Shown one piece after another: positions 2,596-41,420 of a DNA stretch of 64,000 nt. A program made the translations under genes and the position numbers. Position 1 is the stretch's first letter. Each line of letters starts with the position of its first letter. The DNA is taken from contig NC_067399.1 of the NCBI RefSeq assembly GCF_016432865.1, positions 549,878,001 to 549,942,000 of the forward strand, given 5' to 3'. This DNA is from Antechinus flavipes. Lineage: Eukaryota. The notes under the pieces were generated by a model. It had not been told where the DNA came from and did not search any database. It saw only the letters and a list, made by a program, of their open reading frames with translations.

Positions 2596-4020
2596 TTCCA
2601 TAGGGGTAGATGATGATTTGGTTTCAGTGAGGGAACCTACATCACAAAGTTCCATATAAATTCCAACTGGAGGGCTGGACTTGCCGCAGGTACATTATGG
2701 TCATGATAGGTGTCTTATCACAGGAAACTAGAAGAAAAGGAATAGTATCCACTGGGGAGGAACATGGAAGAATCCCTAGTCTCTTATCCAGTTGGACCTC
2801 TTATAATGTATTTCATGTTTCTGTAGATGGTACAGGATATACTGGCAGCTGGAATCACATTCATGAGAATAGAAGCATTTGGAGCAGCATTCTTCCACTC
2901 CTGGGAGTGGATATAGAAGAACTTCAGCAAAGTGACCTAGAAAGCACCCTTGATAAAAATCTGAACTTAGATGCTAGTTGAAATCAAGGCCAAAAGGCAG
3001 TTGGAAATTTGGCCACAAGTGGTAGAGATGGTAGGAAAGGCCAACAAAGGTATCTCTAGATCTTCTAAATTATACCTGTAATACTGTTCTCCAGGACCTC
3101 ATAGAAAGGTCAATGTTAGCATATGAGATATTGGGTGGATCACTCTTGTAGGTCAGGAGCCTCTCATGGTCTAACATCTGCTACAAAGAGATCAGAAGTC
3201 CCTTGTATTGCCCTCTTCAATGAAGAGTTAATAATGTCTTCAGCATTTCCTAGGGTAGATGGTTTGAAGCAGAGCTCTAGTGAAAGATCCTGCAACAAAG
3301 AATTCATGCATTTGCAGTGTTTCCTGATTCCCAGGATTACCTACTTGATTTACTTAAATGCATGAAACTGATAGCTAATTAAGACATTATATCAAGCACA
3401 CTTATTCCATTCCCCAAATACTGAGGGGATGCCATCCTCTTTGACAGATGTTCTACAGTTTCTTGGGAAATTTGGCTGACTGGTCATCTAGTCAAATGGA
3501 ACTCTGATCTATGACACAGTTCCTGTCCCCATCTGTTTCTACCACATGCCTAATGCATCCTCCTCTTTATTAACTCAACTAGCACCACCAGACACTTGCC
3601 AATGTCCAGGACCAAATGCTCTATGTTTTCCAGGCACTGAATTAGGAAATGTTCTTACTGTTCTTGTCAGTCACAGGTCATTGTCTCACTATAATACATG
3701 ATACACAGAATTCTTTGTCCTGTTATTAGAATTTGGAACTCAGGGCTCCTATTTTTCTCCTAGATTTTGGAAGCTTCTATGTGGTCAATCCAGACTGTGG
3801 AACCTAAATAGCAGTGACATCTCATGCTCTTGAAGATAATGCAAGTTTATTTGAAGAGTAAGTGTCTCATTTTGGTCTGTGTTTGCCTCCTGCAGGATGT
3901 CCTGGTGGATCTGTTCCACCTTTTCCCACCAAGCAAACCAATCCTCAGTATTTGGTGAATGTTTGCTGGACTACACTTAAGTTTTGCCTCTAGAGGCACC
4001 AATATTGTTTCTGTCGGTAC
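2596..4020. other. Unidentified decayed coding-like segment (possible retrocopy or endogenous viral element)
   Basis: Higher GC and codon-like composition than flanks, no recognisable TE motif, stops in all six frames; abuts the truncated L1 at about 2595. Confidence 0.3.
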
Positions 4021-4339: not shown

Positions 4340-4498
4340 TCTCAAGTTAGTATCATAGAGAATAGCAATGTGCAAAATTCTTCCACTTGCCCTCAAGAAG
4401 CAGTACTGGGATTAAAGGAGTACTACTTTTGCAGGGCAAGGTGGAAGTTTCTTATATTTCATAATAGAATGAAGAACCCATTGACTGTATCCATACCT
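4340..4498 (+). repeat. Left arm of a 159-bp inverted repeat
   Basis: Reverse complement of 5184-5343 with about 9 differences. Confidence 0.95.
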
Positions 4499-5183: not shown

Positions 5184-5343
5184 AGGTATGGATACAGTCA
5201 ATGGGTTCTTCATTCTATTATGAAATATAAGAAACTTCTACTTTGCCCTGCAAAAATAGTACTCCTTTAATCCTAGCACTGCTTCTTGAGGGCAAGTGGA
5301 AGAATTTTGCACACCGCTATTTCTCTATGATTCTAACTTGAGA
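5184..5343 (-). repeat. Right arm of the 159-bp inverted repeat
   Basis: Reverse complement of 4340-4498. Confidence 0.95.
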
Positions 5344-9567: not shown

Positions 9568-9709
9568 TTAAATCAGAATGCAAAGGAATCCTGGAATACA
9601 ACACACATTCAGAATAAATAAATAAAAAACAGTTTGACAGTGTCATATTAATCAATTAATCTGACTTGGCTTAAAACAACAAGATCCAATCAGTTGACTA
9701 TAGATCCCA
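9568..9709 (+). repeat. 142-bp direct repeat, copy 1
   Basis: Matches 10598-10739 with 3 substitutions. Confidence 0.95.
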
Positions 9710-10597: not shown

Positions 10598-10739
10598 TTA
10601 AATCAGAATGCAAAGGAATCCTGGAATACAACACACATTCAGAATAAATAAATAAAAAACAGTTTGACAGTCTCATATTATTCAATTAATCTGACTTGGC
10701 TTAAAACAACAAGATCCAATCAGTTGATTATAGATCCCA
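10598..10739 (+). repeat. 142-bp direct repeat, copy 2
   Basis: Matches 9568-9709; follows a (CTTT)n run; TTAA at 10598-10601 and 10740-10743. Confidence 0.95.
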
Positions 10740-36464: not shown

Positions 36465-37955
36465 TTTTTTGGTATTTTATTTTCCCCCAATTGCCTGTAA
36501 TCAACATTCATTTTAAAAATTGAGTTTCAAATTCTTTCCTTCCATTTCCACATTCCTGATTGAAAAGGAAATGGATTTGATATGAGTTACACATGTGTAG
36601 TTTTATAAACAAATTTCTGTGTTTGTTGTAAAAAAAAAAAACACACACACACACATACAAAACAACATAGACCAAAATAAAAACCCAAGAAAATAAAGGT
36701 AATTAAAAAGTATGCTTTGACCTGTATTATTTTTCATAATAAACTCTTCATAGTTTGTAGTGTTCTTTGTTAGTTTTCTGGAAGTCTCTGGAATAGCCTT
36801 CATTTCAGTAGAGTAATCATCACAAGAATAGCTAGGTGTTAAAGCCCAAATCCTTTATTATCTCCTTCACAATCTAGTTTCCTTGCCTGGGGCCCAGACC
36901 AGCTTTCTGGAGAGCCTTTCAGACCCACCTTGGTCTCAGCCGGGGAAGTGCAGGAGGTCAGCCACCACATGGTATGAGATGAAGTGAATCTCTCCAAGTT
37001 GCAGGGCTTGTGCTTCAGCCTCCAGCCATCACAAAGGTGGACAATAAAATGAATCTGTCTCTGCCTTCCACCCTGGCTGAGTTTTTCCCAGCTTATATGC
37101 TCTATTCTAATTACATTGTCATAGGTGTGAATCTTATGGAACTATATAAAGTTCTAAGTAAATGTACTGAACTAGAAAACTATTAATCATCATGGTAAAC
37201 TAGATAACCATTGTCTCATTAATTCTACTGACTTAATATCTTGTAAAAATCCTTGTTTTAAGTACAAAGTTCTGCCCCATAACAATAGTTGTCTTGAATC
37301 ACTATATTGCTGAGAATGGCTAAATTAACAACAACTGAACATCTTACAATACTGCTGTTACTATGTATGACATTCTCCTGGTTCTATTTATTTTACTTTG
37401 CATCAGTTCATGTAAGTCTTTTCAGGCTTTTCTGAGAGCATCTAAATCATCATTTCTTATAGTATTTCCATTTTTTTTGCCACCAGAAAAGAGTTGCTGT
37501 GACCATTTTTGGTATTTATAGGTTCTTTTTCTTTTTGCTTACTTATCTCTTTTGGGATACAGACCTAGTAGTGATATTGATGGGTCAAAGACTTACAGAC
37601 TTTTGGGCAGTTTCAAATTTTTTTACATAATAGTTGAATCACTTCATCACTCCACTAATTAGTGTCTCCATTTTCCTACATCCTGTCTAGCCTCTGTCAT
37701 TTCCCTTTTTTATATTACTCAATATAATTGAAATAAGGGAGTACCTCAGAATTGTTTTAATTTACATTTATCCAATCAGTGATTTAGAGTTTTTCATATG
37801 GGCATAAATAGCTTTAATTACTTAGCTGAAAACTTTATCATTTAAAGAATGGGGGATATTTTTATAAAATTGATTTCTCCATTTATTTGCAAGAAAGACA
37901 CCTTTATCAGAGAAACTTGCTTAAGATTTTCTCCACAGTTTTGATTACTATTTCC
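36465..37955 (-). mobile_element. L1 3' end, host of a solo LTR and of the mini-provirus
   Basis: Antisense L1 3' UTR and ORF2-end motifs (cagttcatgtaagtcttttcaggc, gagtacctcagaattg, acctttatcagagaaac). Confidence 0.8.
36756..37284 (-). mobile_element. Solo LTR (529 bp), ERV2/betaretrovirus-like
   Basis: TG...CA termini; perfect 6-bp TSD atagtt at 36750-36755 and 37285-37290; minus-strand AATAAA at 36854-36859. Confidence 0.9.
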
Positions 37956-38357
37956 TGTTGTGAGCTTTTTCTTCTCAAAAAGCAGCCAGGTGATAAAAGT
38001 TCAGATCTTTTATTATCCCAATATAGCCCGGTTAGCTTAGAGGCCTATCTCTCTGCTTGGTTCCAAGAGCTCTCTCCGAATGTCACCAAATCCAAAGGTC
38101 TGGTCCTTCAGCCTCTGCCTCTGCTTTCTTCAGCCTCCAGCCAGCTCCAGTCTTCATGTCATTCCGGTGAAATCTCGACTTGTAGCGTCTTCCTCTCAAG
38201 AACTCTCCAACTGGCCCATTGGCCTATTTATGCTTCTTCCAGAGAGAGGGGATTATGGGTAGTTCTACTTAGTACCTTGTTTCAGGTTCTGCCCAAAACA
38301 TCTTCTTGTAAGATTAGATCAACTCTAATTAGTTAGCAGTTAGTAAGGATTCCAACA
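37956..38357 (-). mobile_element. 3' LTR
   Basis: TG...CA; identical to 39859-40260 except one base (38187 G vs 40090 A); minus-strand AATAAA at 38009-38014 and CATAAATA at 38225-38232. Confidence 0.97.
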
Positions 38358-38373
38358 TCTCCCCCTTTCTTTT
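38358..38373 (-). promoter_or_regulatory. Polypurine tract
   Basis: Minus strand aaaagaaagggggaga directly abutting the 3' LTR. Confidence 0.95.
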
Positions 38374-38536
38374 GTTTTAAAACATAGGGGGTTTCTGAGG
38401 GGGTACACATAAATCCATCAATATGGGCCAGAACTTTGTAACAGATATACATGGTATACATAAATCCATCAACATGGGAGGCATTATACATAATTTACAT
38501 AAGTACATAGCAATATAACACAGGCTAGTAGTAATG

Positions 38537-38599
38537 TCCCCAAGCAGTTAATCTAATTCCCTTCTATTTACCAAATTTGGGATTTCTCCTCATCATCTG
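38537..38599 (-). pseudogene. pol: Integrase C-terminal remnant
   Basis: QMMRRNPKFGK*KGIRLTAWG resembles the betaretroviral IN C-terminal W-x-D-P...W-x-G-P-D...W-G-R-G motif; contains a stop. Confidence 0.6.
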
Positions 38600-38603
38600 G
38601 TAA

Positions 38604-39010
38604 TTACATTGGAGTCGTTTGCATTGGATATTGTCTTGTTGTCTTAAAAGGCCTGTATTCTTCCCAACTGTAATCCTGATTGCTTTTCTGTTGGTTGATG
38701 ACATCAGAGTTCTGAATTTCTAAAGTCTCTCTGGGTGTAACCTCAGCTGCTATCATGCCCCACCTGTCCTTTGATTGATACTTTGGAGCTGGGCCTTGCC
38801 TCTCCTTCCTCTGGGTCAATATACATTTAGAGGCCCAGTGAAAGCCTCGGTTACATTTTGGACATGGGGTTTTGGGTTTTCTCTCATCCTGTCTTCTCAT
38901 TGTATCTCTATATCTACATTGGGCTCTCAAATGTCCAATTTTTCCGCACTGAAAACATCGACGAGTTTCTCTAGAATTCCTCTGCCAAGAAGGACCTTGT
39001 CTTTCATCAT
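38604..39010 (-). pseudogene. gag: Gag nucleocapsid region, out of frame with upstream gag
   Basis: Two CCHC knuckles CFQCGKIGHLRAQC (38916-38957) and CPKCNRGFHWASKC (38823-38864). Confidence 0.9.
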
Positions 39011-39730
39011 AGTCTGGGCATAATAAGCATTTGTGCCCACTGTGGCACAGCGTCTTATGATTTCCTCTAAAGGAGCATCTTTGTCTAGCCCCCATATAAT
39101 TCTTTTGCAAACCTCATTGGCATTTTCCTTAGCCAAATGTTTAGTCATTATTTCTGTTGCTGCATTGTCTCCAATGGTTCTTATTACAGCTGTTTGTAAA
39201 CGTCCCACAAAATCTGCAAAAGGTTCATTGGGACCTTGCTCTATTTTTGTGAAAGCATTATTTCCATCTTTCTGTCCAGGGAGAGAATTCCAAGCTTTTA
39301 TTGCAGCCTTAGAAATTTGCTCATACACTGTTATGGGATACTCAGAATTGTAATTAACTCCATTCTCATCTGATTCGTCCTCCTTTTCACCTAGTAAAGT
39401 TGGTACTTCTTCCTCCTGTACTTTCCTTTTCATCATTCTATCACTTAAATAACTTCTTATAGCCAATTGTATTACATTATATGTATTAATTATTGAGTTA
39501 GGCCCATTTTTATTATAGAATTGACAAAGATCCTCTCCAACCAATTTCCATTCATTTAGATCTAATTCCTTATCAAGAGAGAAACAAGGACATATATCCT
39601 TTACAGTTTGTAAAAGTTCAGTGATTTGCTGTAAACTTATAATTAAACCTTGGCTTTCCATAACTTTGACAATGCTCTCTAAACATTTTCCTTGAACAGA
39701 AACAGGCTGTTTTCTAAATATCTGTCCCAT
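38927..39730 (-). CDS. gag: Internally deleted Gag: matrix fused in frame to capsid C-terminal domain (267 aa)
   Basis: MGQ start in strong Kozak context (aagATGg); betaretroviral MA-like W-x-x-VG motif (EWKLVGEDL); major homology region FTKIEQGPNEPFADFVGRL (39197-39253); ENAN..C CA-CTD motif; no internal stop. Confidence 0.9.
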   Translation of the reverse strand: MGQIFRKQPVSVQGKCLESIVKVMESQGLIISLQQITELLQTVKDICPCFSLDKELDLNEWKLVGEDLCQFYNKNGPNSIINTYNVIQLAIRSYLSDRMMKRKVQEEEVPTLLGEKEDESDENGVNYNSEYPITVYEQISKAAIKAWNSLPGQKDGNNAFTKIEQGPNEPFADFVGRLQTAVIRTIGDNAATEIMTKHLAKENANEVCKRIIWGLDKDAPLEEIIRRCATVGTNAYYAQTMMKDKVLLGRGILEKLVDVFSAEKLDI

Positions 39731-39778
39731 CTTAGCTGAAATTCTACTTTAACTCTTCTAACAAAATTTCTTTGTTGC

Positions 39779-39787
39779 ACTCACCCT
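39779..39787 (-). promoter_or_regulatory. Candidate major splice donor in the ERV leader
   Basis: Minus strand AGG|GTGAGT between PBS and gag ATG. Confidence 0.7.
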
Positions 39788-39837
39788 AATTTCTGGGTTG
39801 AAGTCTTTTCCACTGCATCAGGATCAGAGGCTTTTCA

Positions 39838-39855
39838 GCCCCACGTTGGGCGCCA
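39838..39855 (-). promoter_or_regulatory. Primer binding site, tRNA-Lys(CUU; Lys1,2)
   Basis: Minus strand TGGCGCCCAACGTGGGGC, 18 nt complementary to the tRNA-Lys1,2 3' end, 3 nt from the 5' LTR. Confidence 0.95.
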
Positions 39856-39858
39856 AAA

Positions 39859-40260
39859 TGTTGTGAGCTTTTTCTTCTCAAAAAGCAGCCAGGTGATAAA
39901 AGTTCAGATCTTTTATTATCCCAATATAGCCCGGTTAGCTTAGAGGCCTATCTCTCTGCTTGGTTCCAAGAGCTCTCTCCGAATGTCACCAAATCCAAAG
40001 GTCTGGTCCTTCAGCCTCTGCCTCTGCTTTCTTCAGCCTCCAGCCAGCTCCAGTCTTCATGTCATTCCGGTGAAATCTCGACTTGTAGCATCTTCCTCTC
40101 AAGAACTCTCCAACTGGCCCATTGGCCTATTTATGCTTCTTCCAGAGAGAGGGGATTATGGGTAGTTCTACTTAGTACCTTGTTTCAGGTTCTGCCCAAA
40201 ACATCTTCTTGTAAGATTAGATCAACTCTAATTAGTTAGCAGTTAGTAAGGATTCCAACA
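39859..40260 (-). mobile_element. 5' LTR
   Basis: 402 bp, 401/402 identical to the 3' LTR. Confidence 0.97.
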
Positions 40261-40266
40261 ATTTCC

Positions 40267-41420
40267 CTCCATTCTAATTTCCCCAGTTTATTCTATTCTC
40301 TTTCCTATCTTCCTGTCCTTAAAAATGTTTTACTTCTGACCTCCATATATTTGAAAAATGACACCTTTATCAGAGAAAGTTGCTTAAGATTTTCTCCACA
40401 GTTTTGATTAAGAACTTCCCTGCATTCTAATTCCCCCAGGTTATTTTATTCTCTTTTCTTTCATCCTGTTCCCTCCTTAAAGTGTTTTATTTCTGACAAC
40501 TGCTTGCTCAATTTGCCCTCCCTTCTATGAGAAACCCTGTTTTCTTATCTTCTTTATCTCCTACTTTCCTGTTGTGTAAGATAGATTTCCATACCCAATT
40601 AAATATATGAGCATATACTCATTTGCATTTCTTGCAAATAAATGGAGAAATCAATTTTATAAAAATAACTCCCATTCTTTAAATGATAAACTTTAACTTT
40701 AAGTGCTATATGATGCCCTTTCCTGTCTCCTTTTTTTATGCTTCTCTTGAGTTAAATTTAAACATCAAATTTTCTATTCAGCATTAGTCCTTTCATCAAA
40801 AGTACTTGAAAATCTTCTTTCATTGACTATCCATCCCTCACCTTTCAATCCCCAGAAAGAATTATACTGAGTTCTGAGCTCATTCTACTCTTTTGCCATC
40901 CAGAAATTCCAAGCCCTGATCCTTTCTTTCATGTAGAATTCATGTTATCCTGAATGTGGCTCCACAATACTTATATTGTTTTCCTCTGGTTCTTACAATA
41001 TTTCCCCTGGATCTCAGAGCTCTGGAATTTGGCTATAATACTCTTGGGAGTTTTCATCTCTTTCAGGAAATGATTGGTAGACTACTTCAATTTCTATTTT
41101 ATTTTCTGGTCTAGAGTATTAGGGCAATTTTCCTTGATGATTTTTTGAAATATGATATCTAAGTTCTTTTTTATTATCACAGTTTTCAGAATTTCAATGA
41201 TTTTTAAAATGGTCTCTTTTGGATCTATTTTCCATGTCAGTTTTTTTTTGCAATAAGATATTTCACATTGCCTTCTTTAAAAAAAAATCCTTTTGTCTTT
41301 GTTTTATTGTTTCTTAGTGTCTCAAAGAGTCATTAGCTTTCACTTGTTCAATTACAGTTTTTAAGGGACTGTTTACTTCAGTGAGCTTTTGCACCTCCTT
41401 TTTCATTTTCATTTCATTTT
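40267..41420 (-). mobile_element. L1 inter-ORF region and ORF1 C-terminal fragment
   Basis: Antisense ORF1 motifs (gttatcctgaatgtggctccacaatac, gaatttggctataatactcttgggag). Confidence 0.8.

Follow-up and report, generated by a model that had tools for sequence, protein, structure and literature searches.

Most of the known non-autonomous partners of mammalian endogenous retroviruses (ERVs) code for no protein, and they are regarded as successors that outlast their helpers only briefly. In plants, the TR-GAG elements, Copia and Gypsy derivatives of less than 4 kb, are described as transcribed and as carrying a Gag-only frame (PMC4350172). The mouse deletion form IAP 1-delta-1 is reported to encode an in-frame gag-pol fusion that acts in cis, while other proteins have to be supplied in trans (PMC6466679). 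For the Dasyuridae, the env-less MEBrv 3, about 7.3 kb long with gag, pro and pol frames, is given as the dominant marsupial endogenous betaretrovirus (PMC11334065). The locus compared with these systems here lies in a 64,000-nt stretch of the Antechinus flavipes genome (contig NC_067399.1), hereafter the window, in which an ERV insertion occupies the minus strand at 37956-40260 (2,305 nt, of which 1,501 nt are internal). This insertion is a further-damaged one-off of a gag-only family of about 2,800 copies. It is quite probably a young copy, likely a dead end, of an abundant family whose Gag is under selection and whose enzymes likely come in trans from a family of the MEBrv 3 type. The single window copy is in itself ordinary; its parent family is the main finding.

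The gag-only elements consist of long terminal repeat (LTR), primer-binding site (PBS), leader, gag, integrase stub, 3' untranslated region (UTR), polypurine tract (PPT) and LTR. Missing are pro, reverse transcriptase (RT), RNase H and most of the integrase, and Pfam finds only Gag families in them, of the retroviral p10/p24 type. The deletion that joins gag to the integrase stub was placed at about 38655 by alignment to pol-bearing copies, not at 38600 as in an earlier note on this DNA, which had located three further junctions (39340, 39005 and 38535) correctly to within a few bases. A 30-nt pattern across the family junction (up to two mismatches) matches 2,787 genome places and its reversed control 0, and the matching gag start occurs at 3,070 places. 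Another pattern with 276 exact matches, which lay inside the integrase stub, was replaced by this one. Of 112 matches to the gag end that lack the standard junction pattern, 15 were examined and all continued into the integrase stub. A genome search with the internal sequence returned 4,522 candidates; nearly all of the 40 that were scored showed three collinear blocks. Among 77 copies fetched, mostly 3.1-3.7 kb in length, an LTR pair was present in 60 and a 6-bp target-site duplication (TSD) in 43. The TSDs were distinct in 23 of 23 and 19 of 20 cases in two samples, with median LTR divergences of 0.5% and 0.7%, respectively. LTR length ranges from about 380 to 570 nt among the copies L002-L030, mostly through indels right behind U3 position 98 (window 38260/40163), where identity to the pol-bearing family described below stops.

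The Gag of this family is under purifying selection, since indels shared between copies keep the frame and shared variants show a lower ratio of nonsynonymous to synonymous changes (N/S) than private ones. Of 60 copies that retain the start of gag, 37 have a frame of 490 or more open codons. The indel and N/S counts were made after removal of 3 rearranged copies out of 63. Among indels found in at least two copies, 9 of 10 preserve the frame, the tenth falling in a C run, as against 8 of 27 private indels (Fisher p=0.002). Likewise, N/S falls from 2.74 for single-copy variants, which include 7 stops, to 1.18 for variants in three or more copies, which include none (p=1.6e-4). This drop is unchanged without CpG sites and specific to the gag frame (p=0.45 and 0.09 in the other two). 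When variants common to pro-bearing copies are left out, a comparison from which one further distant copy was dropped, the values are 3.14 and 1.08 (p=0.0017). Amino-acid changes are most strongly depleted in the capsid, with a ratio of nonsynonymous to synonymous polymorphism (pN/pS) of 0.32; the raw pairwise pN/pS of 0.42 was set aside as evidence, being lowered by transition bias. The gag-pro frameshift signal has been lost, as none of 78 gag-only copies has the slippery heptamer that follows the second zinc knuckle in all 10 pol-bearing and all 8 pro-bearing copies. A 195-nt in-frame deletion in the capsid N-terminal region occurs in 7 of 63 copies (L090, L116, L134, L138, L148, L150 and L163), which form a true spreading sub-lineage.

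A plausible source of the missing enzymes is a pol-bearing family of the MEBrv 3 type. A search with the integrase zinc finger gave 5,929 candidates, of which 150 were scored; all 30 pol-bearing loci taken from it match the 3' end of the window element, and in 28 the match spans about 210-280 nt with 97-98% identity. Twelve loci that were extended are env-less and about 6.6 kb long. The two LTRs are 98-99.6% identical in most of them, and four of the twelve have open frames for gag, pro and pol alike. Compared by eye, their integrase is almost the same as in the published MEBrv 3 record, from which a 26-nt pro motif matches 3,272 genome places, a rare third pro type included. Common to the two families, at about 97.6% identity, are the end of the 3' UTR, the PPT and the first 98 nt of U3. 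Beyond that U3 start, a single LTR patch of 65-70 nt matches, and most of the LTR, the PBS and the leader differ. Hence, the helper that the earlier note had expected is likely to exist as a pol-bearing relative, but not with the same LTR. In the 3' block (78 of 95 blocks kept; by family, 23 and 55 copies of 28 and 80) the distance is 2.4% between the families and 0.6% and 2.2% within them, with polymorphisms common to both, whereas capsid DNA differs by 21% and the Gag proteins are 54% identical. This disparity requires recombination long after the gag genes had parted, and mosaic copies of both families are present. Recombination between retroelements by way of co-packaging is an established mechanism, and co-packaging would most simply account for the exchange here as well. 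The pol-bearing family is thus likely the helper of the gag-only family, which would be mobilised in trans. Copies of the two families are also found in tandem, nested and inverted arrangements (L072, L009, L026 and L194). In the sequencing run X22, the most distant of those used, matches to the R/U5 end of the LTR are abundant and those to the U3 start very few (37962-38120 and 40226-40260), and a published quoll record has a different LTR start. The common U3 start may therefore be a lineage-specific replacement.

The partnership appears to be old. This argument is drawn from dunnart proteins, while copy numbers were counted only in the A. flavipes genome. A Gag protein search gave 10 hits, all named as dunnart or devil, which places the host among the dasyurids, and Gags of the gag-only type occur among the proteins of both. 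Two dunnart Gags (P0001 and P0004) end in the same integrase-derived tail as the gag-only family, and one of them shows the same frameshifted, degenerate continuation. In a comparison of this tail with integrase, its score was reached by 1 of 1,000 shuffles. In a quick, midpoint-rooted protein tree, supported by the SH-like approximate likelihood ratio test (SH-aLRT) only, Gags of the gag-only and pol-bearing types form two strongly supported clades, in each of which dunnart falls outside devil and the present genome; one dunnart Gag is a mosaic with a helper-like matrix. The dasyurid tribes are reported to have radiated 11.5-13.1 million years ago (PMC5715987). Since the dunnart Gags carry the same integrase-derived tail, the gag-to-integrase deletion likely predates the tribes, and the partnership of satellite and helper is likely more than 10 million years old.

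On these grounds, a satellite RNA that makes its own Gag would favour packaging of that same RNA, a cis effect as reported for IAP 1-delta-1. Inside the cell, the satellite Gag would co-assemble with helper Gag-Pro-Pol, and the MEBrv 3-type family would supply protease, RT and integrase in trans. Template switching in the mixed particles could then keep the PPT and the U3 end matched to the helper enzymes. The extra deletions of the window copy would have arisen during or before its own reverse transcription, and it would have left no descendants because its Gag lacks the capsid N-terminal domain and the nucleocapsid. The features of this copy are as follows.

37950-37955, no strand: left copy of the TSD, ATTTCC, 6 bp, exact
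37956-38357, minus strand: 3' LTR, 402 nt, from the LTR pair comparison
38260-38357, minus strand: 98-nt U3 start within the 3' LTR, 96-99% identical to the pol-bearing family
38358-38373, minus strand: PPT, from the sequence
38358-38537, minus strand: 3' UTR, 97-98% identity with the pol-bearing family
38402-38478, minus strand: repeat with 51-nt spacing inside the 3' UTR, from the sequence
38537-38538, minus strand: private 314/315-nt deletion junction; lost here are the remainder of the integrase remnant and some of the 3' UTR
38538-38655, minus strand: degenerate remnant of the integrase C-terminal region, 74-77% identity to the pol-bearing family; its first codons prolong the gag frame in sister copies
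38604-39005, minus strand: zinc knuckles of the nucleocapsid plus the Gag tail, which the window copy carries out of frame
38655-38656, minus strand: family-defining junction of the gag end with the 3' part of integrase, 2,787 genome matches
38927-39730, minus strand: shortened gag frame of 267 aa, in which the matrix continues in frame into the capsid C-terminal domain and ends in a frameshifted tail
39005-39006, minus strand: private 7-nt frameshifting deletion, single place in the genome
39340-39341, minus strand: 561-nt in-frame gag deletion that removes the spacer and the capsid N-terminal domain, 2 genome places
39730, minus strand: gag ATG, from the sequence
39779-39786 (near 39784), minus strand: leader splice-donor motif, motif only
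39838-39855, minus strand: PBS, 18 nt, from the sequence
39859-40260, minus strand: 5' LTR, 402 nt, from the LTR pair comparison
40261-40266, no strand: right copy of the TSD, ATTTCC, 6 bp, exact

Much of this anatomy had been described in the earlier note and stands, namely the 402-bp LTRs with one CpG-type difference (CG versus CA, 38187/40090), the 6-bp TSD, the 1,501-nt interior, the PBS, which we take to be of the tRNA-Lys1,2 type, the splice-donor motif, the PPT and the betaretroviral origin. In the two long frames of the element, Pfam recognised matrix (PF02337), the capsid C-terminal domain (PF19317) and zinc-knuckle remnants; protease, RT and env families, already held to be missing, were not found there. 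A PDB search gave retroviral capsid and matrix matches only, as expected. The surviving CpGs to which the note had pointed (19, observed/expected 0.21) do exceed those of the flanks (0.05-0.06), but the content is ordinary among sister copies (median 0.19, n=45).

The single LTR difference in 402 nt gives point estimates of 0.28-1.2 million years, with 95% upper bounds of 1.5-6.9 million years, at rates that were assumed rather than measured (4.5 to 1.0e-9 per year). The integration is thus recent, as had been proposed, yet not unusually so: given that 12 of 43 TSD-bearing sister copies have at most one LTR mismatch and that LTR divergence in the family is low, the window copy is ordinary in age. 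Four related sequencing runs were aligned to the right junction, the left-flank alignment being swamped by repeats, so that the empty site rests on the right flank; the contig pieces listed are part of the total, and the absence of an LTR-flank contig among them carries no weight by itself. In runs X19, X18 and X22, the contig over 40261-40353 extends 24, 32 and 90 letters, respectively, before 40261 into non-LTR sequence. In X17, the contig begins exactly at 40261, and the first 15 letters of its loose end agree with the host DNA left of the element. X17 and X19, with 0-1 listed differences per piece from the window flank, likely represent the same or the closest species. Because the orthologous site is empty in these runs, the insertion is unfixed or lineage-specific, and the window copy is probably a young, unfixed dead end. 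The host DNA had already been rearranged before the insertion: 57 nt are duplicated directly (37891-37947 / 40354-40410) and 67 nt form an inverted pair (37830-37896 / 40628-40694), all in old repeat sequence, presumably akin to marsupial LINE-1. Elsewhere in the window, 142 nt are repeated directly at a distance of 1,030 nt (9568-9709 / 10598-10739, 98% identity) and 138 nt in inverted orientation (4361-4498 / 5184-5321, 95% identity).

Several points weigh against the account of a gag-only family mobilised in trans by the MEBrv 3-type family. The 77 copies are no random sample, being the 37 closest relatives of the window copy and 40 first-listed on one chromosome. Out of 40 gag starts fetched, 39 could be oriented; 20 of these showed the junction, most others were cut or further deleted, and one ran into pro. 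The third pro type has 24 motif matches in the genome, and 7 of 20 such loci fetched carry a gag-only-type gag directly before pro. Gag has thus been exchanged with pol-bearing elements within the host lineage, and there may be a further helper beyond the MEBrv 3-type family. In addition, the private deletions may date from integration or from the time after it, although the presence of three of them beside a single LTR substitution suggests an origin in copying and not later. The third pro/RT type itself (L193, L207-L226) comprises degraded mosaics that match the main pol-bearing family at 75-90% and are often joined to gag-only-type gag, sometimes to helper-type integrase. Conceivably, then, gag-only copies are spawned time and again by a pol-bearing parent with the same gag, so that selection acts in the parent and the copies are mostly dead on arrival. 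The existence of pro-bearing copies with gag-only-type gag speaks for this, but we consider it quite improbable. Such copies are rare (24 versus 2,787 matches) and degraded, with a pol-region frame of more than 588 codons in 0 of 20 loci, and their gag lies 5-10% from gag-only copies and outside the main cluster (tree distance 2.7% within, 7.3% to pro-bearing copies). All of those tested have kept the heptamer that no gag-only copy has, seven gag-only copies have the 195-nt in-frame deletion in common, and the selection signal stays when variants common to pro-bearing copies are removed. The rare pro-bearing copies hence do not look like the present source of gag-only copies.

It is also rather unlikely that gag is kept open for a reason other than packaging, such as protection from nonsense-mediated decay, positioning for RNA export or a dominant-negative Gag that the host favours since it restrains the pol-bearing family. 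In-frame capsid deletions of 195, 546 and 561 nt in copies with TSDs and near-identical LTRs would fit this possibility, as would the spread of the 195-nt deletion to 7 of 63 copies. The frame may matter more than a complete capsid, as in the IAP 1-delta-1 fusion reported to act in cis (PMC6466679). However, amino-acid changes and not just stops are depleted, most of all in the capsid, and variants common to dispersed copies would be out of reach of host selection on fixed loci. The earlier note had taken the 2.3-kb form itself for a spreading satellite subfamily. All cis signals of the window copy are indeed intact, and one other locus with its own TSD carries the 561-nt junction, but the real family is the 3.1-3.7-kb parent, and a mini-subfamily is very improbable. 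Compared with one sister copy, the window element lacks 561 nt after 39341, 7 nt after 39006 and 314 nt after 38538. The genome-wide junction count that the note had proposed gave one place each, this locus, for the 314/315-nt and 7-nt junctions and two for the 561-nt junction, as against 2,787 for the family junction. The second 561-nt locus ranks among the more distant copies (8/385 differences in matrix and 9/325 in capsid; 2 and 0 for the best copies) and is no near relative in any segment tested. Together with 3 nt of microhomology at this junction and an overlapping 546-nt deletion at the same spot in a third copy, this makes a recurrent microhomology deletion likely. In this assembly, the 2.3-kb form is a singleton and not a subfamily. 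Finally, the LTR identity could in principle reflect gene conversion of an old insertion. No support for this was found. In the four related runs, contigs span the right flank from 40261 and show no LTR sequence ahead of that position, so that the site is empty where an old insertion should stand; moreover, the interior of the element matches young dispersed copies at 97-98% identity. Such a conversion is scarcely credible.

Taken together, the gag-only family with its selected Gag and a likely supply of MEBrv 3-type enzymes in trans invites comparison with the systems named at the outset. Towards MEBrv 3, it shows homology in the capsid and nucleocapsid as well as in the integrase stub and the 3' UTR, and its Gag, at 54% to pol-bearing Gag, forms a separate, strongly supported sister clade; it differs by the absence of pro and pol and in most of the LTR, the PBS and the leader. 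The roughly 7.3-kb gag-pro-pol form is not found in gag-only copies and is approximated by the partner of about 6.6 kb. In three dasyurids, the mean ERV hit length is given as 1,675-1,844 nt (PMC11334065), about one gag frame, which suggests that many published MEBrv 3 counts are gag-only elements; the portions of that paper considered here describe no non-autonomous or gag-only form. Passages of a devil repeat paper (PMC4408412) do not contain the word gag. A gag-only ERV family of dasyurids or other mammals was not described in the literature searched, whose scope left out most subscription papers and repeat databases, where a prior annotation is possible. If the account of a gag-only partner with a selected Gag holds true, the MEBrv 3 expansion in Dasyuridae represents two interacting lineages rather than one family and its fragments. 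A partner with a diverged, selected Gag that has apparently stood beside its helper for more than 10 million years would make the cis role of Gag testable on thousands of natural copies, and unfixed insertions are possible population markers.

The family resembles TR-GAG: as in the published description, the elements stay below 4 kb, carry LTRs, a PBS, a PPT and TSDs that differ between copies, code for Gag in one frame and for no enzymes, and include many recent copies. This holds for the family, in which 37 of 60 frames are open, while the window copy's own frame is broken. The gag-only family would work like TR-GAG without being a member, given its retroviral p10/p24 Gag in place of a plant Copia or Gypsy one; it is a vertebrate class II ERV derivative with a candidate helper and measured selection on gag. 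On balance, we lean towards regarding it as a vertebrate counterpart of TR-GAG that lost pro-pol once, before dunnarts split from the devil side more than about 12 million years ago, and has since co-diverged with an env-less helper, with a selected capsid and 3' ends refreshed by recombination. It would then account for almost half of the internal copies in the ERV group that dominates in dasyurids and still be inserting. With IAP 1-delta-1 as described, it shares the env-less, intracellular, betaretrovirus-like character and one large internal deletion that fuses gag in frame to pol. However, 1-delta-1 derives closely from its helper and has lost some of gag while retaining much of pol, whereas here Gag is whole, pol is reduced to a 17-codon integrase-derived tail and Gag has deeply diverged from that of the helper. 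As in the ETn/MusD type (ETn: PMC6466679), terminal cis sequences but not the rest of the LTR are common with the coding family, although the internal region of the gag-only family is coding, with gag open and selected. ETn/MusD, deer-mouse mysTR (PMC10089650), the cattle ERVK[2-1-LTR] C/D types (PMC10924933) and recKoRV resemble it, as far as their descriptions go, in that the partner is as abundant as its helper and recombines with it, and in mysTR, as here, the best-kept shared region lies just upstream of the 3' LTR. The deer-mouse and cattle D-type partners are, in contrast, described as lacking intact frames, and the partners in all four systems carry swapped-in foreign sequence, whereas the gag-only family is a plain deletion with a selected Gag.

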